The notes below the pieces were generated by a model. It saw only the letters and a list, made by a program, of their open reading frames with translations, had not been told where the DNA came from and did no database searches. Shown here piece after piece: positions 17,328-43,261 of a DNA stretch of 64,000 bases. The position numbers were made by a program, and so were the translations under genes. This stretch comes from Pseudoxanthomonas suwonensis. GTDB taxonomy: Bacteria; Pseudomonadota; Gammaproteobacteria; Xanthomonadales; Xanthomonadaceae. Location of the stretch: the NCBI GenBank assembly GCA_003240695.1, contig QFNC01000009.1, positions 31,471 through 95,470 on the forward strand, written 5' to 3'. Within the stretch, counting starts at the first letter, position 1; each line of letters begins with the position of its first letter.

Positions 17328-17365
17328 TCGCGCGGAAAATAGGAATGGTTCTCAATTGTAGCACC
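17328..17365 (-). promoter_or_regulatory. AT-rich island upstream of feoA: candidate promoter / degenerate Fur box
   Basis: GCTACAATTGAGAACCATTCCTATTTTCC (minus-strand sense) is the only AT-rich patch in a ~70% GC context, directly 5' of feoA. The hexamer pattern GAGAAC/CATTCC/TATTTT is loosely Fur-box-like. fur is encoded in the window. Confidence 0.35.
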
Positions 17366-17414
17366 ACCGTGCCCTGCATGAGTTGCGGGTGCCACGGCGT
17401 TTATGATGGGTCGA

Positions 17415-25633: not shown

Positions 25634-26200
25634 ATGAAGGCTTACGATATCAAGAAAGGCAACGTGGTCGAACACGCCGCCGGCGTGTACCAGATCCGCG
25701 ACATCGAGCGCAGTTCGCCGCAAGGCCGCGGCGGCAACGTCCGTTACCGCTTCACCATGTACTCGGTGCCCGGCGGCAACAAGCTGGATGCCAGTTTCGA
25801 CGGCGACGACGACCTGAAGGAAGTCGACATGGCCCGCCGTCAGGCCAGTTTTTCATACAAGGACGGCGAGGCCTTCGTGTTCATGGACGACGAGGATTTC
25901 ACCCCCTACACGCTCGATGCTGACACCATCGGCGATGCGGCCGGCTACATCACCGACGGCTTGGGCGGCTGCTATGTGCAGCTGATCGACGACGCCCCGG
26001 TGGCCCTGCAGCTGCCGCAGTCGGTGGTGCTGGAAATCGTCGACACCCCACCGGAGCTGAAGGGCGGCACCGCCACCAAGCGCCCGAAGCCGGCGCGGCT
26101 GAATACCGGCATCGAAATCCAGGTGCCGGAATACATCGCCAACGGCGAACGGGTATGGGTGAACACCACCACCGGCGAGTTCGGCGGGCGCGCGGATTGA
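25634..26200 (+). CDS. efpL: Elongation factor P-like protein EfpL (YeiP)
   Basis: 188 aa. Strong similarity to E. coli YeiP across the whole length, including the C-terminal [11 protein letters not shown]...GRAD. Confidence 0.9.
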
Positions 26201-26249
26201 GTCGAATCGGCGGGTCCGGGGGCGATGAATCTCATCGGCCGATCCGGAT

Positions 26250-27635: not shown

Positions 27636-27737
27636 CGGGATGTCGGCGTGCGGGGGCGAGCCACAGCCTACCCCACCCTGCCACCGCGCACACCGGCGAG
27701 AGGGCACAATGCATGTCCCCGCGTTCCGGAGCCGGCA

Positions 27738-28976
27738 TTGGCCCCCGTCACCTCGTTCCCCAAATCCGACATCCGCGTGCTGCTGCTGGAAGGCATCAGC
27801 ACCAGCGCGGTCGATGCCTTCCGCGCCACCGGTTACAGCCAGATCCGCACCTTCGACAAGTCGCCGCCGCCGGAGCAGCTGCGCCAGGAACTGGCCGAGG
27901 CGCATCTGCTCGGCATCCGCTCGCGCACGCAATTGACCGCCGAGCTGCTGGACGAGGCCCGCAAGCTGATCGCGGTGGGCTGCTTCTGCATCGGCACCAA
28001 CCAGGTCGATCTGGAAGCGGCACGGCTGCGCGGCGTGCCTGTGTTCAATGCACCGTATTCCAACACCCGCAGCGTGGCCGAACTGGTCATCGCCGAGGCC
28101 GTCCTGCTGATGCGCGGCATCCCGGCGAAATCGATGCAATGCCATCGCGGTGGCTGGTCGAAGTCGGCTGCCGGCAGCCACGAGGTGCGCGGCAAGACCA
28201 TCGGCATCGTCGGCTACGGCCACATCGGCACCCAGGTCGGCGTGCTGGCCGAAGCCTTGGGCATGCAGGTGTTGTTCCACGACGTGGAAACCAAGCTGTC
28301 GCTGGGCAACGCGCGATCCGCGGCCGACCTGGGCGAGCTGCTGGCCCGCAGCGACATCGTGACCCTGCACGTGCCGGAAACCCCGGCCACGCGGATGATG
28401 ATCGGCGCGGCGCAGTTCGCGGCGATGAAACCCGGGGTGCAGTTCATCAATGCCTCGCGCGGCACCGTGGTCGACATCGATGCGCTCACGGCCGCGCTGC
28501 AGTCTGGACACGTGGCGGGCGCGGCCGTCGACGTGTTCCCGGTGGAGCCGCAGGGCAATGCCGATGCGTTCGTCTCGCCGTTGTGCGGCATGGACAACGT
28601 GATCCTGACCCCGCACGTCGGCGGCAGCACGCTGGAAGCGCAGGACAACATCGGCCTGGAAGTGGCCACCAAGCTGATCCGCTATTCGGACAACGGCAGC
28701 ACCCTGTCGGCGGTCAATTTCCCCGAGGTCACCCTGCCCGAGCACCGCGGCAGCCACCGCTTCCTGCACATCCACCGCAACGTGCCCGGCGTGCTGTCGC
28801 GGATCAACGACATCTTTTCCAGCGCCGGCATCAACATCGACGGCCAGTACCTGCGCACCGACGCGCAGGTCGGTTACGTGGTGATCGATGCCGCTTCCGA
28901 CCACGCCCAGGCCACCCGGCTGCGGGAGCGGCTGGCGGCGATCGAGGGAACCCTGCGCACGCGGGTGCTGTACTGA
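27738..28976 (+). CDS. serA: D-3-phosphoglycerate dehydrogenase SerA (with C-terminal ACT domain), TTG start
   Basis: Aligns end-to-end with E. coli SerA (MAPVTSFPKSDIRVLLLEGIS vs MAKVSLEKDKIKFLLVEGVHQ) and has a C-terminal ACT domain. No in-frame ATG exists; the TTG at 27738 fits the alignment. Confidence 0.9.
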   Translation: MAPVTSFPKSDIRVLLLEGISTSAVDAFRATGYSQIRTFDKSPPPEQLRQELAEAHLLGIRSRTQLTAELLDEARKLIAVGCFCIGTNQVDLEAARLRGVPVFNAPYSNTRSVAELVIAEAVLLMRGIPAKSMQCHRGGWSKSAAGSHEVRGKTIGIVGYGHIGTQVGVLAEALGMQVLFHDVETKLSLGNARSAADLGELLARSDIVTLHVPETPATRMMIGAAQFAAMKPGVQFINASRGTVVDIDALTAALQSGHVAGAAVDVFPVEPQGNADAFVSPLCGMDNVILTPHVGGSTLEAQDNIGLEVATKLIRYSDNGSTLSAVNFPEVTLPEHRGSHRFLHIHRNVPGVLSRINDIFSSAGINIDGQYLRTDAQVGYVVIDAASDHAQATRLRERLAAIEGTLRTRVLY

Positions 28977-29008
28977 CCGCCCCGGTTTCCGACGAACGGC
29001 CACTCCAT

Positions 29009-29044
29009 CCTTTCATGTAAGCGTTAGCATGCTTACATGAAAGG
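29009..29044. promoter_or_regulatory. Perfect 14-bp inverted repeat (CCTTTCATGTAAGC-N8-GCTTACATGAAAGG) enclosing the start codon of the first gene of the psp/flotillin cluster
   Basis: Read directly from the sequence. The right arm contains the ATG at 29037-29039. There is no flanking T-run, so it is not a canonical terminator. Confidence 0.6.
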
Positions 29045-29681
29045 CGATCACCCACTCAGCCCCTCCACCCTGCACCAGCGCGCCTACCGCGAACGCATGC
29101 GCGAGGCCGGCCTGGTGAAGAAGGATGTGTGGATCCTGCCCGAATACGCCGAGGAGCTGGCCGGCATCGAAAAGGCGATGCGAGAATCCGGGCATGCGCT
29201 GTCCGTCTCGCATGCCCACACCGGTCCGCAGACGGCCTGGACCCTGGCCGCCATCGCCGACGCCATTGCCGCCACCGGCGCGGCGCGCAGCGGCTCGATC
29301 ACGCCGGAATGGATCGAAGGGGCCGATCCCAGCCTGCGGCTGCAGATGCACGACCACGGCGATCTGTCGGTGTTCGTGGCGGTCGGCCACCAGCAGATCG
29401 TGGTCGAGGCCTACCTGTGGCCAGTCAGCCATGTGGCCGACCCGGCCGCGTTCGATGCGCACGTGCTGACCACCCACAAGCTGTTGCCGCTGTCCACGGT
29501 CGGCATCGAGAACATCGGTGGCGTGCCCGGCTACACCATGTTCGGTTCGCTGGATGCGCAGTCCAGCCTGGCCAGCGTGCTGTTCGAGGTCCAAACCCTG
29601 GCCGACAACGTGCTGGATGCCAGCGAAGCCTGGCTGGACTACCTGAAACCCGAACATCGCCTCGCGGAGACAGCGGCATGA
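29037..29681 (+). CDS. Hypothetical protein, possibly YjfI/DUF2170-like (PspA-associated), with ~55-aa charged N-terminal extension
   Basis: 214 aa. The C-terminal 150 aa loosely resemble the YjfI family that precedes yjfJ (a PspA homologue) in enterobacteria. The assignment is tentative and rests partly on context, since a PspA-like gene follows and is translationally coupled. Confidence 0.5.
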   Translation: MKGDHPLSPSTLHQRAYRERMREAGLVKKDVWILPEYAEELAGIEKAMRESGHALSVSHAHTGPQTAWTLAAIADAIAATGAARSGSITPEWIEGADPSLRLQMHDHGDLSVFVAVGHQQIVVEAYLWPVSHVADPAAFDAHVLTTHKLLPLSTVGIENIGGVPGYTMFGSLDAQSSLASVLFEVQTLADNVLDASEAWLDYLKPEHRLAETAA

Positions 29682-30364
29682 GCCCGTTCAAGGATCTGCT
29701 CAAGCGCATGCAGGAGAGCATGGACGAGCTGGGCGACACCCTGTCGGGCACCAGCACGGCCGAACGCCTGCTGGATGCCGACATCCGGCAGCTGGATGCC
29801 CAGCTGCACGGCTGGCGTGGCGAAGCCGCCAGTCTCAAGGCGCGGCGCATCACCAGCGGCGAACGGCTGCGCGAACACGGCGCGCGTATCCGCCAACTCG
29901 AAGCCGATGCGCTGGATGCCCTGCGTGCGCGTCGCAAGACGGCCGCACGCGAACTGGCCGAAGGGATCGCCGCTGCGCAGGCGGCGAAGGCCGGGGAAAA
30001 GACCCGTCTGGACGATCTGCAAGCACACGAGAAGGCACTGCTGCATGTGATCGAACAGGGCGAATCGAAGCTGCGCCGGCTCAAGCACCAACTGGACACG
30101 TTGCGGGCCAGCGAAAGCCTGCAGCGGGCACAGGCCGCGGTAGCCAAACGCCAGCCCGATGCCGCACCGCATCCCGAATCGGCGGTGGCATCGGCGCAGC
30201 GGGTGCGGCAGCGCCGCACCCCGGGTAGCACCTCCTCCCCACGCACGGTGGCCAGCGCGAAGCCTCCGGCAGAGGCGATACTGGACAGGCTGGCAGCGCG
30301 TTTGGGCGCCGCCGATTCCGCCGCATCGCCACCCGCTCGCAAGCTCGCCAGGAGACGTTCATGA
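29678..30364 (+). CDS. PspA/IM30/Vipp1-family (ESCRT-III-like) coiled-coil protein, YjfJ-like
   Basis: 228 aa. N-terminal ~150 aa predicted as continuous amphipathic coiled coil with PspA-like heptads (LLDADIRQLDAQL...LKARR...). C-terminal low-complexity tail. ATG overlaps the upstream stop (ATGA). RBS GGAGA. Confidence 0.55.
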   Translation: MSPFKDLLKRMQESMDELGDTLSGTSTAERLLDADIRQLDAQLHGWRGEAASLKARRITSGERLREHGARIRQLEADALDALRARRKTAARELAEGIAAAQAAKAGEKTRLDDLQAHEKALLHVIEQGESKLRRLKHQLDTLRASESLQRAQAAVAKRQPDAAPHPESAVASAQRVRQRRTPGSTSSPRTVASAKPPAEAILDRLAARLGAADSAASPPARKLARRRS

Positions 30365-30999
30365 CCGAATTCCTGACCACCGCCCTCACCTTCCCCACCC
30401 TGGTCTGGAGCGTGCTGTTCGCGTTCTGCCTGTTCTACTGGATGCTGGCGGCCACCGGCCTGGTGGACATCGACCTCGACGTGGCCGATGCCAGCCTGTC
30501 GTTCGACACCGACGTGGGCGAAACCGGTGCCTCGGCGGGCATGCTGGCACGATTCGGGCTGGGTGGCGTGCCACTGATGCTGGCGCTTGTCATCCTCGCG
30601 TTCGTCAGCTGGGTCATCACCTATTTCGTGCATCTGCTGGTGCTGGCGGCACTGCCGGACATGCTGCGCTGGATCCTGGGCGCAGTCACGGCCGTCGGTG
30701 CCGTGATCCCCGGGGTGCTGGTGGCATCGCTGGTGCTGCGGCCGTTGCGCAAGCTGATCGCGAAACTGCGTCCACCGGTGCAGCCCTCGCTGCTCGGTCG
30801 GGTCGGCACCGTCACCACGCCAACGGTCGACGACACCCATGGCATGGCCGCATTCGACGACGGCGGCGCGGGACTCATCCTGCAGGTCCGCGCCCGCCCA
30901 CCGGACACCTTCAACCGCGGCGACCGGGTCGTGCTGCTGGAATACCAGACCGGCGACAATAGCTACCGCGTGATGTCCGAAGACCGCTTCAACCGCTGA
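30361..30999 (+). CDS. YqiJ/NfeD-like inner-membrane protein (3 TM + C-terminal OB-fold)
   Basis: Three N-terminal TM helices, then a C-terminal beta-rich segment (GRVGTVTTPTVDDTHGMAAFDDGGAGLILQVRARPP...RVVLLEY) typical of NfeD/YqiJ OB domains. Precedes a flotillin, as in the yqiJ-yqiK pair. ATGA overlap with the upstream gene. Confidence 0.65.
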   Translation: MTEFLTTALTFPTLVWSVLFAFCLFYWMLAATGLVDIDLDVADASLSFDTDVGETGASAGMLARFGLGGVPLMLALVILAFVSWVITYFVHLLVLAALPDMLRWILGAVTAVGAVIPGVLVASLVLRPLRKLIAKLRPPVQPSLLGRVGTVTTPTVDDTHGMAAFDDGGAGLILQVRARPPDTFNRGDRVVLLEYQTGDNSYRVMSEDRFNR

Positions 31000-31031
31000 A
31001 CCACCACACGTCAGTACAGGAGTCCTCCGAA

Positions 31032-32969
31032 ATGTCGCTTTCCATGCTTATTCCGGGCCTGATCGGCCTCGCGGCCCTGGTGGTCGTGGTGTTCGGTCTG
31101 ATCGGCCTGTTCAAGGCGTTCTACGTCAAGGTCGAACAGGGCACGGCCCTGATCGTGAACGACCTGAGCGCCACGCCGAAGGTGCATTTCACCGGCGCGC
31201 TGATCATCCCGGTGCTGTACAAGGCCGAAGTGATGCGCATCAGCCTGATCACGCTGCAGGTGGACCGCCGCGGCAAGGAAGGGCTGATCTGCAAGGACAA
31301 CATGCGTGCCGACATCACCGTGGCCTACTACCTGCGGGTGAACGAAACCCCGGCCGACGTGCTGAAGGTGGCCAAGGCGGTGGGCGTGGACCGCGCCTCC
31401 GACAAGGACGCGGTGGACGAGCTCTTCAACGCCAAGTTCTCCGAAGCGCTGAAGACGGTGGGCAAGAAGTTCGAGTTCATCGAGCTGTTCGAGCAGCGCG
31501 AGCAGTTCCGCGACGAGATCGTCAAGGTGATCGGCAAGGATCTGAACGGTTACGTGCTGGAGGACGTGGCCATCGACTACCTGGAGCAGACCCCGAAGTC
31601 GCTGCTGGATCCGAGCAACATCCTCGACTCCGAGGGCATCCGAAAGATCACCCAGCTCACCGCAGCGCAGAACATCATTACCAACGAGCTGGAACAGAAC
31701 GAGCGCCTGGCCATCACCAAGAAGAACGTGGAAACCCGCGAGGCGACGCTGGCGCTGGAACGCCAGCAGGCCGAGGCCGAGGCGCGGCAGAAGCGCGAGA
31801 TCGAGAGCATCCAGGCACGCGAAGGCGCCGAAACCGAGAAGGTGCGCGAGGAACAGCGCTTGCTGGCAGAAAGCGCGCGACTGGAAACCGAGGAGAAGGT
31901 GCAGATCCGCGACCAGGAACGCCAGCGCCAGGTGGAAATCGCCGAGAAGAACCGCCTGCGTGCGGTCAGCATCGAGGCCGAACGGGTGAACCGCGCGGCG
32001 AAGATGGAAGCGGTGACCACCGACCGCGAGGTGAAGCTGCAGGAGGTCGAACGCGACAAGGCTGTGGAACAGGGCGTGATGGACGTGGCCAACATCACCC
32101 GCGAGCGCGTGGCGATCGACAAGACCGTGGCGATGGAAGAGGAGCGCATCAACGAGGTGCGCGAGGTGTCCGCCGCCGACCGCGCCAAGCAGGTGCGGGT
32201 GCTGGAAGCCGAAGCCGCCGCGCAGGAAACGCTGGTGAAGGAAATCAAGTCGGCCGAGGCCGGCGAGGCCGCCGCCAAGCACCGTGCGGTGGAAATGACC
32301 ACGCTGGCGCAGGCCGAGCTGGAAGCCGCCGGTCGCCAGGCCGATGCCAAGAAGGTGTTGGCCGAAGGCATCAAGGCCGAAAAGGCGGCCATCGGACTGG
32401 CCGAAGCGCGGGTGATCGAGGCCAAGGCCGACGCCAATTACAAGCAGGGCAATGCCGACGCGCGCGTTCTGGCCGAGCGCTTGGCCGCCGAGGCCGAGGG
32501 CGAAGCCAAGCTGGGCCAGGCACGCGCCAGCGCCGCCGAGGCGATGGGCAGCGCCGAAGCCTCCGCAGTGGGCAAGCGCATGGCCGCCGAAGCGGAGGGC
32601 CTGAACGCCAAGTTCGATGCCATGGACAAGATGAGCGACTCTGCACGCAGCCACGAGGAATTCCGCATGGCGCTGGACACCAGCCTGGAGCAGGCACTGG
32701 CCACCATCGAAGCGGGCAAGGTGGTGTCGAAGGAGAATGCCGAGGTCATCGCCACCGCGCTGCGCAATGCGCGCATCGATCTGGTGGGCGGCGAAGGCGG
32801 CATGTTCGACGCGCTCAGCCGCGCGATCGCGTTGGGCCGCTCGGTGGAAGGCTTTGCCGGCAAGAGCCCGATCGTGCAGGAGCTGCTGGACAAGTACCTG
32901 GGCGTGAAGCAGCCCTCCACCGATGCCACGCTGGCGCTGGGTCGGGATGCGGCGGATGCGAACGGCTGA
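31032..32969 (+). CDS. Flotillin-family SPFH/band-7 protein (YqiK/FloT-like)
   Basis: 645 aa. N-terminal TM, SPFH domain, then a long EA-rich coiled coil (EAEARQKREIESIQAREGAETEK...) typical of flotillins. Confidence 0.9.
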   Translation: MSLSMLIPGLIGLAALVVVVFGLIGLFKAFYVKVEQGTALIVNDLSATPKVHFTGALIIPVLYKAEVMRISLITLQVDRRGKEGLICKDNMRADITVAYYLRVNETPADVLKVAKAVGVDRASDKDAVDELFNAKFSEALKTVGKKFEFIELFEQREQFRDEIVKVIGKDLNGYVLEDVAIDYLEQTPKSLLDPSNILDSEGIRKITQLTAAQNIITNELEQNERLAITKKNVETREATLALERQQAEAEARQKREIESIQAREGAETEKVREEQRLLAESARLETEEKVQIRDQERQRQVEIAEKNRLRAVSIEAERVNRAAKMEAVTTDREVKLQEVERDKAVEQGVMDVANITRERVAIDKTVAMEEERINEVREVSAADRAKQVRVLEAEAAAQETLVKEIKSAEAGEAAAKHRAVEMTTLAQAELEAAGRQADAKKVLAEGIKAEKAAIGLAEARVIEAKADANYKQGNADARVLAERLAAEAEGEAKLGQARASAAEAMGSAEASAVGKRMAAEAEGLNAKFDAMDKMSDSARSHEEFRMALDTSLEQALATIEAGKVVSKENAEVIATALRNARIDLVGGEGGMFDALSRAIALGRSVEGFAGKSPIVQELLDKYLGVKQPSTDATLALGRDAADANG

Positions 32970-32983
32970 CAATGCCGCTGCGT

Positions 32984-33009
32984 GGCCGGCGATGACCGCA
33001 TCGCCGGCC
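32984..33009. promoter_or_regulatory. Perfect 10-bp stem hairpin (GGCCGGCGAT-GACCGC-ATCGCCGGCC) between the flotillin and giant-ATPase genes
   Basis: Lies 15 nt after the flotillin stop and 42 nt before the next ATG. No T-run. Possible attenuator or RNA-processing site. Confidence 0.45.
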
Positions 33010-33050
33010 GTGTCCGTTGCACGATCCGCCCTGCGCTGGAGTGATTCCCG

Positions 33051-36000
33051 ATGACCGATGCCACCGACACCACTGCCGTCGCCGCAGCACCTGCATCAAA
33101 CACAGTCAATCAGGCCGTGGCCGAGGGCGGTGCCTACGAGGTGCTGCGCAAGCGGCTCACCGGTTTCGGCGGGCAGCTGCAGGCCATCGCGGATGATCTG
33201 AACGCGCGCCGCCTGCAGGAGTTCGGCGACAGCCGCATGGCGCTGGCCGGCCGCTTCCGCATCCGCACCGAGCACAACTGCGTGGGCCGCGACATCGTGC
33301 AGGTCGGCGATCTGCTGGTGTTCGGCTTCAACGTGTTCATGGGCCTGAAGAAGACCACCACGATTGCGGACGTGTTCGGCCTGTACCGCATGGTTGAGGT
33401 GAGCGACGGCTACGACGTGGAACCGGTGGACATCGCCGGCAGCTTCCTGTCCGATCCCGGTTTCGTGCGTGATTTCGACGAGCTGTACGCCTACTACAAG
33501 CATGCGCGCCTGCTGCAGCTGATCGTGCTGGACAGCAAGTTGATGGCCGCCTTCCAGATCGGCGAGCGTAGCACCGACGTGCGCGTGTTCCGCTGGTCGC
33601 TGGCCAGCAGCGGCGAGATCAGCTACATCGATGCCCGCGGCGAACGCGACATCGCCCTGCCCCCGCCGTTCGATTTCGAGTGGCAGCGCGCCACCCGCGA
33701 GATGGAAGTCAGCGGCCGCCATCCGCATCTCAACATCCTCGACACCCTGTTCGTGGAAACCCTGGGCGGCGATCTCACCGTCAAGGTCGAGAACAACACC
33801 GAGACCGGCAGGGGCATCTACAGCGAACCGGTGGAGGACAGCACCCAGTCCATCGACGATGCGCGCTTCGAATTCGCGCAGGTCGGTTCGCTGATCCTGT
33901 TGAAGATCCTGCCCTACCGCGAAAGCCAGTGGCGCGGGCTGGTGTACAACACCATCACCCGCAAGGTGCAGCGCATCGATGCCATCGTGCAGGCCTGCGT
34001 GCAGTTGCCGGAAGACCACGGCATCATCTTCCCGGGCGGCTACTACCTGCAGAACGGCGACCACAAGGCCTTCGACGCGGCCATGGCCGGCATGCAGTTC
34101 AAGCGCGCGATCCGCTCGCCCAACGGCGAGGACGTGCTGTACATCTTCTACGACCGCGACTCCGGGCTGGCCGCGCTGTTCGTGTACAACATGATCCAGC
34201 GCCAGCTGCAGAACCCGGTGTTCGCGCACGGCTATGCGCGGCTGGCCGACGGCCGCATGGTGCTGTTTCACGACGAAACCGGCGACCCCACCCGCGTGCA
34301 CCAGATGCAGGTGTGGATCACCCCGTTCGCCAGTGACGAATTCGCCGCGGCGCGGCCGCCCAGTGGCAGTTTCATGGGCAGGCTGGGCAATGCCGAACTG
34401 GTGCGTGGCATCTCCAACGTGTACGACCTGGTCCGCCAGATCGGCAACACCGACGTCTCCGCCAGGCGCTACGAACTGCTGACCCATCAGACCCGGCAGC
34501 TGTTCGACCAGCACCACTGGATCGACGACGACCATTGCAGCGGCCTGCGCAGCCTGCTGCACGAGGTGGCCGCCACCGGCGAATCGGTGCTGGACGAATT
34601 CGAGAAGGTGCAGAGCATCCGCGCGCAGTCGGACGCGGCCATGCAATCGGCACAGATCGAACAGCGCAAACTGCTCGGCCGTCTGCAGCCGGATTCGTGG
34701 AGCCGCATCCAGGAATACGTGGAAGCGCTGAATGCGCTCTCCCGCCAGCGTGGGCATCTGCTCACCATCCGCGATTACCGCTACATCGACACCGCTGCCA
34801 TCGATGCCATGGCCGAGGCGCTGCAGGAAGCGCACACGCGCATCGGCTCGGCCACCGGTGCCTTCCTGGCCGGCGACAAGGCCCTGCTGCCGTTCAACGA
34901 ACAGCTCCAGCAACTGGACCAGACCGCGCAGAAGGCGGAGACGGCCAGACAACTGAGCGAGCAACTGCAGGCGATGCAGACGATGTCCAGCGACTTGGAC
35001 ATGCTGTCGGAATTGATGGCCTCGCTGCCGGTGGACGATGCTACCCAGCGCACCCGCGTGGTGGATGCCATCTCCAATCTGTACGCACGCCTGAACCAGG
35101 CGCGCGCACGTGCCGACCAGCGCCGCAAGTCGCTCGGCTCCAGCGAGGCGGTGGCGCAGTTCGGTGCGCAGTTCGGCCTGTTTTCCCAGTCCATCACCAG
35201 TGCGCTGGGCATGGCGACCACGCCGGAGCGCGCCGACGAGCAGCTGGCACGGCTGCTGGTGCAGCTGGAGGAGCTGGAGGGACAGTTCGGCGAACACGAG
35301 CAGTTCCTCGTCGACATCCTCGGCAAGCGCGAGGAACTGCTGGAAACCTTCGAGGCGCACAAGCAGGCGCTGCTCGACGATCGTCAGCGCAAGGCGCAGT
35401 CGGTGCTGGATGCCGCCAACCGCATTCTCGACGGCCTGGGCAAGCGCACCGAACGTTTCGATCAGCCCGACGAGCTGAATGCCTTCTTCGCCGGCGACCC
35501 GCTGATCCTGAAACTGCGCGAGCTGGCCACGCGGCTGCGGGAACTGAAGGATCCGGTGAAAGCCGACGCGGTCGAAGCGCGCCTGAAAGGCGTGCGCGAC
35601 CAGTCCGTGCGCGTGCTGCGCGACCGCAGCGAGCTGTTCGAGGACGGTGGCAGCGTGATCCGCATGGGTCGGCATCGCTTCAGCGTGAACACGCAGCCGC
35701 TGGACCTCACCCTGCTGCCGCGCGAAGACCACCTGGCCGTGCATCTCACCGGCACCGATTACCTGCAGCCGCTGCGCGATGCCACGCTGGACGAATTGCG
35801 CGCCTTCTGGCAAGTGACGCTGGATTCGGAATCGCCCCAGGTGTACCGCGGCGAATACCTGGCCTGGCAGGTGTTGCGGGCCGCCGAACACGGCAACGAT
35901 GGCTGGAGCCGCGATGCGTTGCTGCATCTGCTGGCCGACCCCGAACAGCTGGCGGCGCGGGTGCGCGAGTTCGCCGCGCCGCGCTATCGGGAAGGTTACG

Positions 36001-38408
36001 AAAAAGGCATCCACGACCACGATGCCGTGCTGATCCTGCAGGCGGCCGTGCCGCTGCAGCAGGTCGCGGGCGCACTGGTGCACCCAGCGGCTGCGCGTGC
36101 GCTGGCATTGCTCGCGTGGTCGGCGCATCCGCGGCTGCAGGCGACCTGGCGCGAACGGATCCGCAACGCGCATGCCCTGCGCACGCTGTTCGGCAGCAGC
36201 GACGCCCTTCAGGCCGCGCAAGCCGACATCGCCCATGCCATCGCCGCATTCGGCGAACGCGAAGCGCTGGCCGACGGCGTGGCATCGGCGCAACAGGCCA
36301 CCGAGTACCTGTCCGACGCGCTGCAGCAGGCCGATGGCCGCTTCGCATTCACCCGACAAGCCGGGCAGTTGCTGGAGACACTGCGGCAGCAGCTGCAGCA
36401 GGCCGGACTGGGCGAAAGCATGTCGCTGGCGCTGCAGCCGGACCTGCCGCTGGTCGAACGCTGGCAGTGGCTGCTGCACTGGCTGACGGCATTGACCAGG
36501 CAACCCGCGCATGCGGCGCTGGCGCGTTTCGTGCCTGAAGCCGCCGCATTGGCATTGCTGGGCGACACCCTACCCCACGACCTGCGCGACATCACGCTGG
36601 ATGCCACGGTCACCGGCCTGCTGGGCGAGCATCCGCGCATCGCCGGCGGCAGCCTGCCGTTGGCCATCGACGACTTCCTGCCGCGCCTGCATGACCACGC
36701 ACATCGCTTCGTGCCGGCCTTCCACCGTTACCAGCAGCAACGCCAGCAGGTGATCGCCCAGCAACGCGATGCCCTGCGACTGGGCGAGTATCAGGCCAGG
36801 CCACTGACTTCGTTCGTGCGCAACCGGCTGATCAACGACGTTTACCTGCCCATCATCGGCGACAACCTGGCCAAGCAGATGGGCACGGTGGGCGAATCCA
36901 AGCGCAGCGACCTGATGGGCATGCTGATGCTCATTTCGCCGCCCGGTTACGGCAAGACCACGTTGATGGAATACGTGGCCAACCGGCTGGGTCTGGTCTT
37001 CATGAAAATCAACGGTCCGGCACTGGGCCACGACGTGCGCTCGCTGGACCCGGCCCAGGCACCGGACGCCACCTCGCGGCAGGAGCTGGAAAAACTGAAT
37101 CTGGCGCTGGAGATGGGCAACAACGTGATGCTGTACGTGGACGACATCCAGCACACCCATCCGGAATTCCTGCAGAAATTCATCTCGCTCACCGACGGCA
37201 CCCGCCGCATCGAAGGCGTGTGGCAGGGGCGCACGAAAACCTACGACCTGCGCGGGCGCAAGTTCGCGGTGGTGATGGCCGGCAACCCGTATACCGAGTC
37301 GGGCGAGGTGTTCAAGATTCCCGACATGCTGGCCAACCGCGCCGACATCTACAACCTCGGCGACGTGCTGGGCGGCATGGAGGACGCCTTCCTGCTCAGC
37401 TACATCGAGAACAGCCTGACCGCCAACCCGGTGCTGGCGCCTCTGGCCACCCGCGACCTGGCCGACCTGTACCTGCTGGTGGACAGGGCGCTGGGCAAGG
37501 AGGTCTCCACCAATGCGCTGAAACATGCCTACAGTGCCGCGGAAATCAACGAGATCACCGCCGTTCTGCAACGCATGATCGCGGTGCGCGAGGTGGTGTA
37601 CCGGGTCAACCAGCAGTACATCGCCAGTGCCGCGCAGGCTGACAAGTACCGCACCGAGCCGGCCTTCAAGCTGCAGGGCAGCTACCGCAACATGAACAAG
37701 CTGGCCGAGAAGATCTCGCCGGTGATGAACGATGCCGAGCTGCAACAGCTGATCAACGACCACTACCAGGGCGAATCGCAGCTGCTGACCACCGGCGCGG
37801 AGGAAAACCTCCTGAAACTGGGGGAATTGCGCGGCACCCTGACCGAAGCGCAGCGCGCCCGCTGGCAGCAGATCAAGGCCGACTTCCTGCGCAACAAGGC
37901 GATGGGAGCGGACGATGCGGACGTGGGGGGCCGCGTGATCGCACAGCTGGCCGACATCGCCGGTGGTCTGCAATCGCTGCGTGCCGAACCGAAAACCACC
38001 GTGACCGCGCCGGAGCCAGTTGCGCCGCCGCCGTGGCAGGATCTGCTGCAGGCGTTGCAGGCACTGCGCGTTCCGCAGGCGGCGCCCGCTCCCGCCGTGC
38101 CGCCGGCGCCGTCTCCCGAACCGCGCGAGTGGACCGTGACCGCCCCCGGCCTGACCGACGCCCTGCGCGAGGGCCTGTCGCCGTTGCTGGACACGCTGGC
38201 CAGCAGCGGCCAACAACAGCAGCAAGTGCAACTGGCTTTGGGGCGTCTTGCCGACGCCCTGCGCGACTCCGCGCAGCAGCAGCCGACCGTCATCGTGCAC
38301 GAAGACGCCGGCACGACGCCGCGCAAGCGCCGACCCAAGCCGGAAAAGCTGAAAAAACTGGACGAACAACTGGACATGATCGATTTCCACCGGAAACCGG
38401 CGGAATGA
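33051..38408 (+). CDS. Giant (1785 aa) protein: ~1290-aa N-terminal helical/coiled-coil region + MoxR/AAA_5-like AAA+ ATPase core + Pro-rich linker and basic tail
   Basis: Uninterrupted ORF with normal codon bias and RBS GGAG. Walker A SPPGYGKTTL (~aa 1299), Walker B VMLYVDDIQ, sensor-1-like VVMAGNPYTESG and ANRADIYNL (the MoxR NP...LDRF pattern). C-terminal APEPVAPPPW...PAPSPEP linker and RKRRPKPEKLKKL tail. No match to a characterised protein recalled. Confidence 0.8.
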   Translation: MTDATDTTAVAAAPASNTVNQAVAEGGAYEVLRKRLTGFGGQLQAIADDLNARRLQEFGDSRMALAGRFRIRTEHNCVGRDIVQVGDLLVFGFNVFMGLKKTTTIADVFGLYRMVEVSDGYDVEPVDIAGSFLSDPGFVRDFDELYAYYKHARLLQLIVLDSKLMAAFQIGERSTDVRVFRWSLASSGEISYIDARGERDIALPPPFDFEWQRATREMEVSGRHPHLNILDTLFVETLGGDLTVKVENNTETGRGIYSEPVEDSTQSIDDARFEFAQVGSLILLKILPYRESQWRGLVYNTITRKVQRIDAIVQACVQLPEDHGIIFPGGYYLQNGDHKAFDAAMAGMQFKRAIRSPNGEDVLYIFYDRDSGLAALFVYNMIQRQLQNPVFAHGYARLADGRMVLFHDETGDPTRVHQMQVWITPFASDEFAAARPPSGSFMGRLGNAELVRGISNVYDLVRQIGNTDVSARRYELLTHQTRQLFDQHHWIDDDHCSGLRSLLHEVAATGESVLDEFEKVQSIRAQSDAAMQSAQIEQRKLLGRLQPDSWSRIQEYVEALNALSRQRGHLLTIRDYRYIDTAAIDAMAEALQEAHTRIGSATGAFLAGDKALLPFNEQLQQLDQTAQKAETARQLSEQLQAMQTMSSDLDMLSELMASLPVDDATQRTRVVDAISNLYARLNQARARADQRRKSLGSSEAVAQFGAQFGLFSQSITSALGMATTPERADEQLARLLVQLEELEGQFGEHEQFLVDILGKREELLETFEAHKQALLDDRQRKAQSVLDAANRILDGLGKRTERFDQPDELNAFFAGDPLILKLRELATRLRELKDPVKADAVEARLKGVRDQSVRVLRDRSELFEDGGSVIRMGRHRFSVNTQPLDLTLLPREDHLAVHLTGTDYLQPLRDATLDELRAFWQVTLDSESPQVYRGEYLAWQVLRAAEHGNDGWSRDALLHLLADPEQLAARVREFAAPRYREGYEKGIHDHDAVLILQAAVPLQQVAGALVHPAAARALALLAWSAHPRLQATWRERIRNAHALRTLFGSSDALQAAQADIAHAIAAFGEREALADGVASAQQATEYLSDALQQADGRFAFTRQAGQLLETLRQQLQQAGLGESMSLALQPDLPLVERWQWLLHWLTALTRQPAHAALARFVPEAAALALLGDTLPHDLRDITLDATVTGLLGEHPRIAGGSLPLAIDDFLPRLHDHAHRFVPAFHRYQQQRQQVIAQQRDALRLGEYQARPLTSFVRNRLINDVYLPIIGDNLAKQMGTVGESKRSDLMGMLMLISPPGYGKTTLMEYVANRLGLVFMKINGPALGHDVRSLDPAQAPDATSRQELEKLNLALEMGNNVMLYVDDIQHTHPEFLQKFISLTDGTRRIEGVWQGRTKTYDLRGRKFAVVMAGNPYTESGEVFKIPDMLANRADIYNLGDVLGGMEDAFLLSYIENSLTANPVLAPLATRDLADLYLLVDRALGKEVSTNALKHAYSAAEINEITAVLQRMIAVREVVYRVNQQYIASAAQADKYRTEPAFKLQGSYRNMNKLAEKISPVMNDAELQQLINDHYQGESQLLTTGAEENLLKLGELRGTLTEAQRARWQQIKADFLRNKAMGADDADVGGRVIAQLADIAGGLQSLRAEPKTTVTAPEPVAPPPWQDLLQALQALRVPQAAPAPAVPPAPSPEPREWTVTAPGLTDALREGLSPLLDTLASSGQQQQQVQLALGRLADALRDSAQQQPTVIVHEDAGTTPRKRRPKPEKLKKLDEQLDMIDFHRKPAE

Positions 38409-38427
38409 CGCGTGGCCATCGCCAGCC

Positions 38428-39120
38428 ATGCCGGACAGCGCGCGCATGACCGATGCACGGACCGATGCGGATGCCGGAACACTCGCCGACCAGGCGGTGC
38501 TGGCAGCCACCACCGCCCAGGCCGATGTTCTACAACTGCACGCGCCCACCGAGCGCATGCTGGCACTGCTGCGCGACATCCGCACGGTGCTGCTGTCCAC
38601 CGACCCGGCCGCATTGCGGCGCAGCGTGGGTCTGTTCGGACGGCTGCTGGGCAACGACATCGACCTTGCCGCCGAAGCCGGCCAGCTGCGCGAGCAGGCT
38701 GGCGTGCTGGTGCAACAGGCCCGCGGCATCCTGCAGCAGTCGCAGCAGTATCTGGATTCCATGCATCGGCACATCGTCAGCATGGAGCAGGCGCAGACCC
38801 GACTGCAGCACGCGCATGCCGCACTGGCGCAGGCGGTGCCATCCGATGGCCACGCGCCGCCCTCGCGACGCGCCGATCACCTGCTGCAGTTGCTGGCCAC
38901 CACCGACCTCAGCGCCCGGCAGTTGCGGATCTCGGCCGACCATCACGCGCGACTGCACGCGCGATTCGGCATGATGGCCGATACGCTGCTGCCCTTGCTG
39001 ACGCAAACGGCCATCATCGAGAAGGCGCAGCACGGCGCGCCGGTCCATCGCCAGACGCTGGGCGAGCTGGATGCGCTGGAAAGCCTCATCATCACCGAAT
39101 CCACCCAGGAGCCGCCATGA
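38428..39120 (+). CDS. Hypothetical 230-aa soluble helical protein, translationally coupled to telA
   Basis: Sensible amino-acid composition. The alternative frame (track 38412-40205 N-part) is Arg/Ala garbage. Stop overlaps the telA ATG (ATGA). Confidence 0.5.
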   Translation: MPDSARMTDARTDADAGTLADQAVLAATTAQADVLQLHAPTERMLALLRDIRTVLLSTDPAALRRSVGLFGRLLGNDIDLAAEAGQLREQAGVLVQQARGILQQSQQYLDSMHRHIVSMEQAQTRLQHAHAALAQAVPSDGHAPPSRRADHLLQLLATTDLSARQLRISADHHARLHARFGMMADTLLPLLTQTAIIEKAQHGAPVHRQTLGELDALESLIITESTQEPP

Positions 39121-40205
39121 CCACACCGAGCGACGGACCACTGATCACCGCACAGGCCCTGCCCGATGCCACCGCGCTGGTGCAGCTGGGCCTGACCAAT
39201 GCCGACATGCCGGCCATCGTGCAGGCCGGCAAGGGACTGCAGGATCTCTCGCCCACCGCACTGCAGGGCTATGGCCGCGATGCCGCCGCCAGGACCAACA
39301 GTTTCTCGACCCAGCTGCTGGACAAGGTGCGCAACAGCGATCTGGATGCCTCCGGCGACAAGCTGGGCGAGGTGGTGAAGATCGCCCGCAGCCTGAATCT
39401 GCAGAGCTTCGCCGAGCGTTCGAAGGTGCCGCTGCTGGGCCCGTTGATCGACCGGATGAAGGCCACCCGCGACGACCTGATCCAGAAGTACAGCAGCACC
39501 AACAGCCAGATCGACCAGCTGATGCGCGAGGTCGGCCAGACCCAAGCCACCCAGGCGCAGCGAGTGAAGGAATACGACCAGATGCACGGCATCGTGCGCG
39601 AGGAACACCGCGATCTGGGCATCCACGTGGCTGCCGGGCGCATGCGCCTGGCCGAACTGCAACAGGAAATCGCCACGCTGGACGGCCGCGACGATCCGGC
39701 ATCGCGGCTGCGCCGGTCCGAACTGGACACCGCGATCCGCCTGCTGGACAAGCGCGTGTCGGACCTGCACGTGCTGCAGCACGCCACCGAACAGACCCTG
39801 CCGATGATCCGCCTGATCCAGGCCAACGCGATCCAGCTGATCGAAAAATTCAGTGCCGTGCGCGACGTGACCCTGCCGATGTGGCGGCACCAGTTCGCCA
39901 TCCAACTGTCGCTGGCGGACCAGAAGAATGCGGTGCAACTGGCCAATGCCATCGACGATGCCAGCAACGCGCTGATGCGCCGCAATGCCGAACTGATGCA
40001 CCAGACGTCGGTGGAGACGGCCAAGGCCAACCAGCGCTCGGTGCTCGACATCGACACGCTGCGCACGGTCAACGACACATTGATCCGCACGGTCGAGGAA
40101 GTGCGGACCATCCACCGCGATGGCATGCAGCAGCGGCAGCAGACTGAACGCGACATCCAGCAGATGCGCGAACAGCTGCAGCAGCAGCTCGATACCCGCA
40201 CCTGA
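39117..40205 (+). CDS. telA: TelA/KlaA-family toxic-anion-resistance-like protein
   Basis: 362 aa. TelA-like motifs (DQLMREVGQTQATQAQRVKEYDQM, TLPMIRLIQANAIQLIEKFSAV...WRHQFAIQLSLADQ). ATG at 39117 within the longer track frame. Confidence 0.75.
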   Translation: MTTPSDGPLITAQALPDATALVQLGLTNADMPAIVQAGKGLQDLSPTALQGYGRDAAARTNSFSTQLLDKVRNSDLDASGDKLGEVVKIARSLNLQSFAERSKVPLLGPLIDRMKATRDDLIQKYSSTNSQIDQLMREVGQTQATQAQRVKEYDQMHGIVREEHRDLGIHVAAGRMRLAELQQEIATLDGRDDPASRLRRSELDTAIRLLDKRVSDLHVLQHATEQTLPMIRLIQANAIQLIEKFSAVRDVTLPMWRHQFAIQLSLADQKNAVQLANAIDDASNALMRRNAELMHQTSVETAKANQRSVLDIDTLRTVNDTLIRTVEEVRTIHRDGMQQRQQTERDIQQMREQLQQQLDTRT

Positions 40206-40233
40206 AGCCACCGCCCTGTCAGCCCGACGCGCT

Positions 40234-40775
40234 TCAGCCGCTGCGGGCCAGCCAACGCCGGGCCATGCGCCGCAGCGAGACATCGGCCGTGGCATCGTCC
40301 GCCAGCTCGGCGATGTCGCACCAAGCCAGCGCATGCGATTCGGCGCTGACCGCGAATGCCTCGCTGCCGGTGGCCTGCACCACGAAGCGCACATCGTGAT
40401 GCCAATGCCCGGGCACATCGCCACGCTCGGGAATCCAGTGCCGGTCCAGATCGAAGATGGCCGGCTCCACCTGCAGGTCGGACAGTCCGGATTCCTCCAG
40501 CGCCTCGCGCAGCGCCACTGCGGCCAGGTCCATGTCGCCATCGGCATGACCGCCGGGCTGCAGCCAGCGATCCAGCTTGCGATGGTGGGTGAGCAGCGTG
40601 CGCCGGCCATCGCCACTGACCAGCCAAGCCGAACCGGTGAAGTGGCCGCGCAGGCGCTCGCGGGTGAAGGCATGGTGGCCTTCGTCCAGCAATGCCAGGT
40701 AGTCGTTCGCCAGTTCAGCCTGATCCGGCAGGGCGCTGGCATGGATGTGCAAAGCGCATTCGAGCGTGGTCGGCA
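40234..40775 (-). CDS. NUDIX hydrolase
   Basis: Nudix box (GGHADGDMDLAAVALREALEESG). Start MPTTLECALH at 40775. The upstream part of the track ORF is read-through. Confidence 0.7.
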
Positions 40776-40933
40776 TGGGATCGGTCTTCCTGGCAACGGC
40801 ATGGATGGTGCAAAGCAGCAACCCCGTGGCGACTGTCACATGTGCGCCATCGTCTTGTGCTGGGGCATGCGGACAGTTTAAGGTCACGCGGTTGCGGCCA
40901 ACGGACCGCCTGTTCCGTTCCGGGGAGACCTTC

Positions 40934-42478
40934 ATGCTGTTCCAGCGCGTCAAATCACTCGACAAGATTCTCGAAACCGCCGAAAGGAAGTCGCTCAAGC
41001 GGCAACTGGGCGCATTCCAGCTGACCATGCTGGGCATCGGCGCGGTGATCGGCACCGGCATCTTTGTGCTGACCGCCGAAGCCGGCCAGAAAGCCGGCCC
41101 GGCCATGATGGTGGCGTTCATCATCGCGGCGGTCGTGTGCGCACTGGCGGCGCTGGCCTACTCCGAACTGGCCTCGATGGTCCCGGTGTCCGGGTCGGCC
41201 TATACCTACACCTACGGGGTGATGGGCGAGTCGCTGGCCTGGGTGGTGGGCTGGGCGCTGGTACTGGAGTACGCGGTGGCTGCCGGTGCGGTGTCGGTGG
41301 GCTGGTCCGGATACATGAATGGCCTTCTGACGAGCGCCGGAATCGGATTGCCCGCGGCGCTGAAAACCGGTCCCCTGGATGGCGGCGCCTTCAACCTGCT
41401 GGCCTTCCTGATCGCGCTTGTCGTCACCGGACTGCTGGTGATCGGAACGTCGAAGTCGGCCAAGGTGAATGCCGTGCTGGTGTTGATCAAGGTGATTGCC
41501 CTGACGGTTTTCATCGCCATTGCGGTTCCGGCCGCGCAGGACAGCAACTTCGAACCCTTCTTCCCCACCGGTTGGGGCAGCCCGATGGGCGGCGTCGGCG
41601 TGCTGGGTGCCGCCGCTTCCATCTTCTTCGCGTACGTCGGCTTCGACGCGGTGTCCACCGCTGCGGAGGAAACCAAGAACCCGAACCGCAACATCCCCAT
41701 CGGCCTGATCGGCTCGCTGGGCATCTGCTCGATCTTCTACCTGTTCGTCGGCTACGGCGCGGTCGGCGCCATCGGTGCACAGCCGATGATGGACGCGAAC
41801 GGCATGGCGTTGCATCCCGGCACCCCGGAACTGGCGGCGGCGTGTGCCGCCAACAATCCAAATGCGCTGGTCTGCAGCAAGGAGCCGCTGGCCCACGTGC
41901 TGCGCATGATGGGCTTCGCCGGCTGGGGCAATGCCATCGGCCTGGCGGCCGCACTGGCATTGCCGTCGGTGATCCTGATGATGCTGTACGGCCAGACCCG
42001 CATCTTCTTCACCATGTCGCGCGACGGGCTGCTGCCGGACGCCTTGTCGAAGGTGCACCCGAGGTGGCACACGCCGCATGTGGTGACGTTGCTCACGGGT
42101 GCATTCGTGTCGCTGTTCGCCGCTCTGTTCCCGGTGGGCATTCTCGCCGACATCTCCAACTCCGGCACGCTGTTCGCCTTCATCGCGGTGGCCATCGCGG
42201 TGCTGGTGCTGCGCAAGAAGGAACCGAACCGTCATCGCCCGTTCCGCACGCCGATGGCATGGCTGGTGTGTCCGTTGGCCATCGCCGGCTGTCTGCTGCT
42301 GTTCTTTAATCTGTCGATCTACACGCTGGCGATGTTCGTCGGTTGGACCGTGGTGGGGCTGATCATCTACGCCGCCTATGGTTACCGCAACAGCGAGCTG
42401 GCGCGCGGCCTCACCGGGCCGGAGGGTGGTCCGACGATTCCGCCGGAGCCGCCCTTTCATGAAGGACCCCAGGCCTGA
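40934..42478 (+). CDS. APC-family amino-acid permease (cationic amino-acid transporter-like)
   Basis: ~12 TM segments with APC N-terminal motif (LTMLGIGAVIGTGIFVLTAEA). ATG at 40934. Confidence 0.9.
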   Translation: MLFQRVKSLDKILETAERKSLKRQLGAFQLTMLGIGAVIGTGIFVLTAEAGQKAGPAMMVAFIIAAVVCALAALAYSELASMVPVSGSAYTYTYGVMGESLAWVVGWALVLEYAVAAGAVSVGWSGYMNGLLTSAGIGLPAALKTGPLDGGAFNLLAFLIALVVTGLLVIGTSKSAKVNAVLVLIKVIALTVFIAIAVPAAQDSNFEPFFPTGWGSPMGGVGVLGAAASIFFAYVGFDAVSTAAEETKNPNRNIPIGLIGSLGICSIFYLFVGYGAVGAIGAQPMMDANGMALHPGTPELAAACAANNPNALVCSKEPLAHVLRMMGFAGWGNAIGLAAALALPSVILMMLYGQTRIFFTMSRDGLLPDALSKVHPRWHTPHVVTLLTGAFVSLFAALFPVGILADISNSGTLFAFIAVAIAVLVLRKKEPNRHRPFRTPMAWLVCPLAIAGCLLLFFNLSIYTLAMFVGWTVVGLIIYAAYGYRNSELARGLTGPEGGPTIPPEPPFHEGPQA

Positions 42479-42613
42479 CCCCAGACCACCGGCCGGGTCA
42501 TTCCGTCACCAGCGGCAGTTCCGGTTTGCCGCTGGTGGCGGTGCAATCACCGCCGCAACGCTCTGACACACGGCGCTGTACCTTGCCGACACGCGCTGCC
42601 GTACACTCGCGGC

Positions 42614-43261
42614 ATGAGCACCGCACCATCCGTTTCGATACCAGACCTGGCCGCACTGGCCCACCGCGCCCGCGACCTGGTCGCCGCGGTCACCGAACTG
42701 TCCAACCGCGGCTGGACACCGGCCACCAGCAGCAATTTCTCGCTGCGCCTGGATGATCGCCACGCCGCCATCACCGTGTCCGGCAAGGACAAGGGCCGGC
42801 TGACCGAGGCGGACATCATGGTGGTCGATTTCGATGGCCATGCAGTCGGCAGCAATCATCGTCCTTCCGCGGAAACGCTGCTGCACACGCAGCTGTACCG
42901 GCGTTTTCCCGAGATCGGCTGCGTGCTGCACACCCATTCGGTCACGCAGACGGTGGCCTCGCGTCTGTTCGCCGCACAGGGGCATGTGCGCTTCGACGGC
43001 TACGAACTGCAGAAGGCGTTCGCCGGCAACAGCACCCATGAAGGCAGCATGGACGTGCCGGTGCTCCCCAATACCCAGGACATGCCCGAACTGGCGGCAC
43101 GGGTGGACGCCGTCCTGGATCGGCAGTGCCTGTGGGGTTATCTGATCGACGGTCACGGGCTGTATGCCTGGGGCCGCGACCTGGCCGAAGCCCGCCGCCA
43201 CCTGGAGGCCTTCGATTTCCTGCTGAATTGCGAACTGCAACTGAGGATGCTGCAACGATGA
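42614..43261 (+). CDS. mtnB: Methylthioribulose-1-phosphate dehydratase (class II aldolase family)
   Basis: Class-II aldolase/adducin fold with His cluster (LHTHS). Followed by mtnD and mtnC. Confidence 0.85.

Follow-up and report, generated by a model that had tools for sequence, protein, structure and literature searches.

A Lysobacteraceae version of the PspA-flotillin-giant-ATPase operon with a KlaA-TelA extension and a predicted autorepressor

Known relatives of the operon

The Pseudomonas aeruginosa genes PA3732 to PA3729 received the name bac (from "biofilm-associated cluster") in 2008; PA3731 is induced by osmotic shock, and a PA3731 mutant is defective in biofilm formation, swarming, and virulence (PMC2587700). 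Wallart et al. in 2024 described a six-gene operon, bacABCDEF, in which reverse transcription-PCR bridged every junction and thus revealed co-transcription. They also solved the structure of BacA, proposed a sigma-54 site for bacA, and showed that BacA has a negative effect on its own operon, the bacA mutant over-accumulating BacB to BacF 6- to 13-fold (PMC10948618). In a 2026 paper, PA14_16160 is assigned as a short NfeD protein and PA14_16180 as the SPFH protein PaFlo3; the deletion has a marginal phenotype, and a patchy distribution suggests horizontal transfer (PMC13086221). Here we analyze a seven-gene cluster of this kind, carried at positions 29037 to 40205 of a 64,000-nucleotide stretch of DNA from Pseudoxanthomonas suwonensis (contig QFNC01000009.1). 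The whole stretch is called the window below, and the genes are called g1 to g7. The cluster is the Lysobacteraceae version of a known PspA-flotillin-giant-ATPase operon, and what is new in it is a KlaA-TelA extension and a shifted, leaderless-type promoter.

The operon class was set out by Ravi, Anantharaman et al. (2024, mSystems), who described operons that combine a CesT/Tir (YjfI)-PspA pair with a band-7/flotillin protein, an AAA+ ATPase, and a YqiJ/YuaF protein. They also noted shorter flotillin-YqiJ(-ATPase) operons, with an optional PLD gene, and they proposed ESCRT-like, ATP-dependent remodeling, so that the analogy to ESCRT-III and Vps4 has already been drawn (PMC11237479). A beta-propeller fold has been claimed in the literature for the ATPase of this class. 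A 2025 review states that bacterial PspA has no known ATPase of the Vps4 type (PMC7619361). In Bacillus subtilis, the SPFH protein YdjI recruits PspA (PMC8581546).

How does the P. suwonensis cluster compare with these systems? All five components from g1 to g5, together with their domain descriptions, match the class of Ravi et al. Likewise, g1 to g4 match the order in P. aeruginosa bacABCDEF (PA3732-PA3727/PA14_16140-16200), namely the DUF2170 protein BacA, the PspA-like BacB, the YqiJ-like BacC, and the flotillin BacD/PaFlo3. The cluster is therefore not undescribed, as an initial annotation of this DNA had called it. KlaA and TelA, however, are not mentioned by Ravi et al. ("TelA" has 0 occurrences in PMC11237479), nor do the passages of that paper that were available mention a DNA-binding-like N-terminal module in the YjfI protein or an operator. 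Loci of the Pseudomonas group share with this window a giant DUF3686 ATPase placed next after the flotillin and paired boxes upstream of g1, but they continue with a rhomboid gene and a PLD-like gene where this window has KlaA-TelA. A sigma-54 site was proposed for bacA, whereas this window has no sigma-54 consensus. In Escherichia coli, g3 and g4 have their homologs in YqiJ and YqiK, and g1 and g2 belong to the YjfI and YjfJ families. However, yqiJK and yjfIJ are separate loci, neither of them with a giant ATPase, and E. coli YjfI (133 amino acids [aa]) lacks the N-terminal module of g1.

Gene order and conservation

All seven genes are intact open reading frames (ORFs) on the + strand. The first two encode a BacA/YjfI-like protein in which a basic N-terminal module precedes a DUF2170 domain (g1, 29037-29681) and a PspA/IM30-family protein of the YjfJ/BacB type (g2, 29678-30364). 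They are followed by genes for a YqiJ/YuaF-like (short NfeD-like) membrane protein with three transmembrane (TM) segments (g3, 30361-30999), a YqiK-type flotillin with a TM segment, an SPFH domain, and a long coiled coil (g4, 31032-32969), and a giant ATPase of 1,785 aa (g5, 33051-38408). The last two encode a KlaA homolog that is a distant TelA paralog (g6, 38428-39120) and a TelA/KlaB-family "toxic anion resistance" protein (g7, 39117-40205). The junctions g1/g2, g2/g3, and g6/g7 are 4-bp ATGA overlaps, while gaps of 32, 81, and 19 nucleotides (nt) separate g3 from g4, g4 from g5, and g5 from g6. The co-directional order, overlaps, and spacing are exactly those given in the initial annotation. 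A scan inside the cluster returned 0 sigma-70-like promoters and 0 + strand terminator-like sites, and an Rfam scan of 26000-43000 found no element. Given the overlaps, the short gaps, and the absence of an internal + strand terminator-like site, the seven genes form one predicted operon built from three known modules. The core module is g3-g4-g5, which encodes the YqiJ-like three-TM protein, the YqiK-type flotillin, and the giant AAA+ ATPase, a soluble protein of the DUF3686 family. The 5' add-on is g1-g2, a YjfI/BacA-YjfJ/BacB pair consisting of a CesT-like chaperone and a PspA-family protein, and the 3' add-on is the KlaA-TelA pair g6-g7, which is lineage-specific to the Lysobacteraceae.

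Which of these genes travel together? Six-frame ORFs from 80 genome loci with 10-kb flanks were searched with iterated profiles of g1 to g7, and 72 of the loci had enough flanking sequence. These 80 loci were the ones that best match the ATPase of this window, which biases them toward its close relatives, so the fractions given here are indicative only. The genes for g3 and g4 adjoin the ATPase gene in 72/72 loci. The g1-g2 dyad lies near it in 41/72 and is never split (g2 is found with g1 in 41/41); in four loci from Cellvibrionaceae and Marinobacter (L056, L061, L069, and L074), it is divergent from g3-g5. It follows, from 72/72 versus 41/72, that the constant partner of the ATPase is the flotillin module, that is, the flotillin plus the YqiJ-like protein, and not PspA. 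TelA is found near the ATPase in 15/72 loci, all of them in Lysobacteraceae, and g6 was detected in 14 of these 15 and occurs only together with g7. Only five loci (L005, L007, L009, L013, and L037) have all seven genes. The idea of a PspA homolog hard-wired to a giant AAA+ protein, as the initial annotation saw it, is weakened by these counts. In this sample, co-conservation holds for the flotillin, the YqiJ-like protein, and the ATPase and is incomplete for PspA, for TelA, and for the set of seven.

The counts for g6 use only first-iteration matches downstream of g5. In most loci, the iterated g6 profile matched out-of-frame ORFs lying over the conserved 3' end of g5 (e.g., L014, 14545-14958), and this drift was set aside as an artifact of stop-to-stop ORFs in high-G+C DNA.

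Loci that lack TelA either leave the slot after the ATPase empty or fill it with a rhomboid gene (10 loci), a PLD-like gene (15 loci), or both. Such rhomboid-family and/or PLD-like (HKD) genes follow the ATPase in Pseudomonas, Enterobacterales, and other loci, for example, at 15220-16509 in L014 and at 14892-15476 in L025. In a metagenome-assembled genome of Lysobacter (L009), KlaA-TelA is itself followed by a PLD gene (17133-17837).

The genomic surroundings of the operon vary. In Xanthomonas sacchari, g3-g7 lie inside the trp region, and the flanks of the present cluster, serA and a NUDIX gene, are common to 0/80 of the other loci. Deinococcus ficus (L001/L002) has g3-g4-g5 only, and the Deinococcus flotillins share 75 to 78% protein identity with g4. 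The differing flanks and this identity therefore describe a modular cassette that moves between genomes. The initial annotation had taken the cluster to be chromosomal rather than obviously mobile; the housekeeping flanks agree with the first half of that statement, while the 0/80 count and the Deinococcus flotillins speak against the second. In D. ficus (L001/L002, 1-9128), the three genes sit beside an extracellular contractile injection system cluster, mostly on the opposite strand, with sheath, gp19-like tube, eCIS_core, and Pvc16_N genes.

Operator-like boxes and the promoter of g1

Two operator-like boxes, TTTCATGTAA (29011-29020) and TTACATGAAA (29033-29042), lie at the start of the operon. 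Both are held within a perfect 14-nt inverted repeat (29009-29044) whose arms, at 29009-29022 and 29031-29044, overlap the g1 start codon; position 29009, from which the initial annotation counted the cluster, is the first base of this repeat. Allowing at most one mismatch, TTACATGTAA has two matches in the 64-kb window, versus 0.08 expected, and both fall at 29009-29044. Upstream of g1, 28 of the 29 loci in which g1 has an N-terminal extension show boxes matching T[TC]ACATGT[AG]A, most of them paired at a distance of ~22 nt. The 12 loci with a g1 that lacks the extension have no paired boxes (L050 has a lone box), and loci without g1 have no boxes near g3. In the four loci in which the dyad is divergent, g1 has no N-terminal module, and there are no boxes.

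What is this extension? It is basic, ~45 to 60 aa long, and has the consensus SAHYQRxxRxRLREQGLVKKEVWILPE. All 29 homologs that carry it match the N terminus of the NCBIfam BacA model NF050185. Resemblance to the plasmid repression protein UrfF was found for 26 of the 29 homologs and to the Pfam MazE-like family for 15 of the 29, all below the curated cutoffs. The crystallized BacA chain (PDB 8q8o, 146 aa) appears not to cover the module, because it aligns to g1 residues 67-205 only.

The position of the boxes is informative as well. Most loci have box 1 immediately before a TTGAxx -35 hexamer, with box 2 in the 17- to 18-nt spacer that precedes a TAxxxT -10 hexamer. L005, L007, and L037 have TTGACA or TTGACG, a 17- to 18-nt spacer that contains box 1, TAxxxT, and then 6 to 7 nt before the ATG. 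The clade of this window shows the arrangement displaced by one turn, with the ATG inside box 2. By analogy with L005, L007, and L037, the + strand hexamer TAGCAT (29025-29030), 6 nt before the g1 ATG, is the putative -10 element. No Shine-Dalgarno sequence was found before g1 and, taken with the promoter layout, this suggests that the g1 mRNA is leaderless. Were the inverted repeat transcribed from upstream, the ATG would be covered by a hairpin with a folding energy of -25 kcal/mol and a z-score of -4.7. No sigma-54 site (TGGCAC-N5-TTGC-like, up to three mismatches) is present in 28701-29045, and none is conserved across the loci. The evidence points to a sigma-70-type promoter for the operon, not a sigma-54 one.

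The boxes at the promoter, together with the de-repression seen in the P. aeruginosa bacA mutant, make it the simplest reading that g1 is the operon repressor as well as a chaperone for g2. On this sequence evidence, g1 probably represses its own operon through predicted DNA binding to TTACATGTAA-like boxes.

The PspA dyad and the flotillin pair

The g1 protein matches Pfam DUF2170, a CesT/Tir-like chaperone family, with an E value of 8.5e-43, and its residues 67-205 match the P. aeruginosa BacA crystal structure (PDB 8q8o; E, 2e-33). Against the full NCBIfam model NF050185 (206 positions), it scores 231 bits, short of the cutoff of 300, so by the NCBIfam standard it is not a BacA equivalog. 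The g2 protein matches Pfam PspA_IM30 (E, 3.5e-18) with 66.5 bits against a curated cutoff of 33.9. By profile comparison it is a PspA/IM30-family protein, and thus a member of the ESCRT-III superfamily, as had been claimed for the product of the ORF that starts at 29678. A DUF2170 gene directly followed, with a 4-bp overlap, by a PspA_IM30 gene is part of the arrangement by which the operon class is recognized. The C terminus of g2 carries a VLxRL motif in common with E. coli YjfJ. This MIM-like motif was considered as a docking site for the ATPase and rejected as specific evidence, as YjfJ carries it in an operon that has no such ATPase.

As single sequences, g3, g4, and g6 have no Pfam match above threshold, the best for g3 being YqiJ_N with an E value of 0.14. 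Family profiles compared by hhalign relate g3 to E. coli YqiJ (93%; E, 3e-7; 141 columns) and g4 to E. coli YqiK (99.8%; E, 7e-28; 393 columns). Sequence and profile searches of the PDB sequences found no relative of g4. The labels that the initial annotation had attached to the smaller proteins (YjfI-like, PspA, NfeD/YqiJ-like, flotillin, and TelA) all hold, on Pfam matches for g1, g2, and g7 and on hhalign for g3 and g4. The role in membrane scaffolding or envelope stress that was read from them is kept as a sensible one for the cluster.

The giant ATPase

The product of g5 had been supposed to have no recognizable part other than an AAA+ core, but it has more. DUF3686 occupies residues 43-489 (33177-34517, + strand; Pfam E, 7e-195) and DUF7902 residues 610-694 (34878-35132, + strand; Pfam E, 6e-28); a helical middle part then leads to the AAA+ core (~36897-37370, + strand), where Pfam AAA_5 and AAA both match residues ~1292-1419 above their cutoffs, with 28.0 bits for AAA_5 against a threshold of 22. 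A sequence-profile search of solved structures with the N-terminal 720 aa found no relative. More than 4,900 homologs (1,336 representatives at 50% clustering) occur in Proteobacteria, Deinococcus, Actinobacteria, Myxococcota, and Acidobacteriota. In 31 diverse homologs, the invariant residues include the Walker A sequence GYGKT (1299-1303), the Walker B pair DD (1364-1365), N1412, and R1430. An AAA+ fold is thus supported, and the AAA_5 match agrees with the MoxR/AAA_5-type core of the initial annotation.

To which branch of the AAA+ proteins does g5 belong? Read by eye, its sensor-1/arginine region, AGNPYTESGEVFKIPDMLANRAD, follows the pattern NPxxExGxxxxIPDxLxNR, with MoxR-like spacing and a single conserved arginine. 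A motif reading of the 31-homolog alignment found no aromatic pore-loop motif in the AAA+ core. When the family profile was compared with PDB sequences, the classical-clade AAA proteins Rix7, NVL, and p97 came first, matching the Walker A half only. An AlphaFold model of residues 1200-1650 has a pLDDT of 56 and places a beta-hairpin directly ahead of the sensor-1 strand. In Foldseek, matches of this low-confidence model are led by NorQ and also include CbbQ (both MoxR proteins), RuvB, and MCM, all with E values of >1e-3, and no classical-clade AAA protein is among the 50 matches listed. Modeling the giant protein, then, gave weak fold matches from a model of low confidence. Overall, the clade leans to MoxR, and membership in the Vps4 family is not supported. 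MoxR/AAA_5 ATPases are expected to have a VWA-domain partner, and Pfam finds none among the seven cluster proteins. The operon recalls the pairs Vps4/ESCRT-III and FtsH/HflKC in that it encodes an AAA+ protein alongside a member of the ESCRT-III superfamily and an SPFH protein. The likeness is a possible functional analogy only, however, as g5 lacks a MIT domain (by Pfam), a protease domain, and a TM segment and cannot with confidence be placed in the classical AAA clade.

The KlaA-TelA pair

The last gene of the operon, g7, encodes a protein with a clear match to Pfam TelA (E, 4e-69). Its neighbor g6, annotated earlier as a hypothetical protein, is a KlaA homolog, as the g6 family aligns with plasmid KlaA in hhalign (98.4%; E, 7e-15; 186 columns). 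KlaA itself is distantly TelA-like (hhalign, 80%); compared directly with TelA, g6 gives a weak result (hhalign, 27%), and its link to that family runs via KlaA. The nearest plasmid relatives of g7, with 42 to 47% identity, sit in klaA-telA-klaC operons, and the kilA operon of IncP-type plasmids (klaA-klaB/telA-klaC/telB) has the same g6-g7 order and the same overlapping stop and start codons. With a KlaA homolog and the same overlapping junction, g6 and g7 thus make up a klaA-telA pair that lacks klaC. Unlike the plasmid operon, this pair is chromosomal, is attached to the end of a flotillin-ATPase operon, and has no KlaC/TelB gene; after g7 there is no further + strand gene, and the convergent NUDIX gene lies there. 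A relationship between g6 and the gene found at the rhomboid position in Pseudomonas loci was tried and rejected (hhalign, 0.3%).

Flanks and other features of the window

The housekeeping flanks named in the initial annotation are both present. Upstream of the cluster, serA (2-Hacid_dh and ACT domains) runs on the + strand to a stop codon at 28976, and downstream of g7 is the convergent NUDIX gene. A gene for a FAD-linked oxidase, on the - strand at ~26250-27650, is divergent from serA, and the 917-aa and 865-aa ORFs listed in 26250-28976 are artifacts of high G+C. The window as a whole has a G+C content of ~66 to 67%, and many of its ORFs are spurious for that reason; the seven + strand ORFs of the cluster are backed by homology. 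Within the 81-nt gap between g4 and g5 is a G+C-rich hairpin (32984-33009, + strand) with an 11-bp perfect stem, no U-tract, and a fold z-score of only -1.8. It could dampen expression of the genes behind it. Among related loci, the size of this gap varies from ~100 bp to >3 kb.

Elsewhere in the window, a tmRNA gene (60988-61341) encodes the tag peptide ANDDVYALAA, and G+C falls from ~0.67 to 0.63-0.64 across 60 to 64 kb; this end of the window may be an island integrated at ssrA. G+C also dips to 0.624 at 10001-12000, versus ~0.67 elsewhere.

A proposed mechanism and its alternatives

What might the operon do? We think it reasonably likely that it is a stress-inducible membrane-scaffold operon in which g1 is a repressor-chaperone, g3 and g4 form an assembly that recruits g2, g5 does the remodeling, and KlaA and TelA are extra clients or effectors. 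In such a scheme, g1 would be bifunctional. Its basic N-terminal module would bind the TTACATGTAA-like boxes over the promoter and start codon and so repress the operon, while its DUF2170 domain would hold the PspA-like g2 in the manner of a chaperone with its client. Under membrane stress, g2 would go to the membrane, the state of g1 would be altered, and repression would be lifted. At the membrane, g3 and g4 would form an SPFH/flotillin assembly that recruits g2, by analogy with YdjI of B. subtilis. The ATPase g5 would spend ATP to assemble, remodel, or dismantle such scaffolds, on which its N-terminal DUF3686/coiled-coil part would dock. The flotillin module would be its constant partner, with PspA and KlaA/TelA as optional clients or effectors. 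A bolder form of the idea, offered tentatively and on balance doubtful, is that the DUF3686 giant is the missing bacterial ATP-driven remodeler of SPFH cages and, where co-encoded, of PspA, KlaA, and TelA polymers, with the g1 chaperone-repressor switch sensing its PspA client.

Several points weigh against the scaffold-operon proposal. DNA binding by the g1 module is probable on the grounds of co-occurrence with the boxes and sub-threshold similarity, and the -35 element is weak in this window. Deletion of paFlo3 in P. aeruginosa changes biofilm by only ~20% (PMC13086221). The equation of g5 with bacE is by position only, and the view of BacE as a giant ATPase is drawn by analogy from seven other Pseudomonas-group loci. 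The bias of the locus sample toward relatives of this ATPase counts here as well. An AlphaFold model of g4, built from an 18-sequence alignment, has a pLDDT of 57, with the SPFH region at <50, and is unusable; the identity of g4 as a flotillin is for this reason settled by the hhalign match to YqiK. Likewise, with pLDDT values of 56 to 57, neither the AAA+ clade of g5 nor the fold of DUF3686 is fixed by the models.

Could g5 instead be a dedicated Vps4-like disassembly ATPase for a PspA (ESCRT-III) polymer, with the flotillin and TelA as accessories? A PspA_IM30 gene and an AAA+ ATPase gene do share one tightly coupled operon, 41/72 loci have the dyad with the ATPase, and Rix7, NVL, and p97 are the top PDB sequence matches, in the Walker A half. 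Ravi et al. proposed the same analogy (PMC11237479), and the 2025 review leaves such an ATPase to be found for bacterial PspA (PMC7619361). However, 31 of the 72 loci, Deinococcus included, have the ATPase with flotillin and YqiJ and no PspA nearby. The protein itself lacks the MIT domain (Pfam) and the aromatic pore loop, its single conserved arginine and its sensor-1/arginine region are MoxR-like, and its weak fold matches are to NorQ/CbbQ, RuvB, and MCM, not to Vps4 or p97. Even the C-terminal motif of g2 recurs in YjfJ of E. coli, and that protein's operon is without an ATPase of this kind. On these grounds we consider a Vps4-like enzyme, the analogy that the initial annotation had favored, unlikely. 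Somewhat less probable again is a horizontally mobile conflict system, anti-phage or abortive infection in type, in which the ATPase would sense an insult and trigger PspA, KlaA/TelA "kil," rhomboid, and PLD proteins as membrane-active effectors. The 3' modules (KlaA-TelA, rhomboid, and PLD) are indeed swappable, chromosomal contexts differ between loci, the Deinococcus and Lysobacteraceae flotillins are 75 to 78% identical at the protein level, and relatives of klaA-telA reside on conjugative plasmids. Moreover, kilA genes are lethal to the host if unregulated, and ter/tel loci are linked to phage inhibition. Yet PADLOC defense models gave no match beyond the P-loop level, the cluster lies between housekeeping genes, next to which neither an integrase nor other defense genes were seen, and the core proteins are scaffolds rather than toxins. 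The P. aeruginosa operon, for its part, responds to osmotic shock and biofilm growth (PMC2587700).

The databases offer another answer, one that we regard as very improbable, namely, that g5 is an ATPase of DNA repair whose place among membrane genes is incidental. Its homologs are almost universally labeled "DNA repair ATPase" in NCBI and UniRef, Pfam describes DUF3686 (PF12458) as "ATPase involved in DNA repair," and there is weak, P-loop-level similarity to RuvB. However, searches of g5 revealed neither a nuclease nor a helicase nor a DNA-binding domain, its two membrane-protein neighbors are invariant (72/72), and its gene is part of a membrane-protein operon with translational coupling. 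DUF3686 is not mentioned in the body of papers searched. With no domain, neighbor, or paper found in its support, the label looks like an inherited annotation.

Significance

The stress-inducible scaffold operon proposed here belongs to a widespread class, with its >4,900 ATPase homologs, that in P. aeruginosa is linked to biofilm and virulence. Autorepression at a sigma-70-type promoter would offer a specific alternative to the control by sigma-54 that has been proposed, and the N-terminal module of g1 that it involves had previously gone unremarked. The presence of KlaA-TelA in the same slot as the rhomboid and PLD genes ties the TelA family to flotillin/PspA membrane biology. Finally, the operon is one of the few direct test cases for how a PspA polymer may be disassembled without Vps4.

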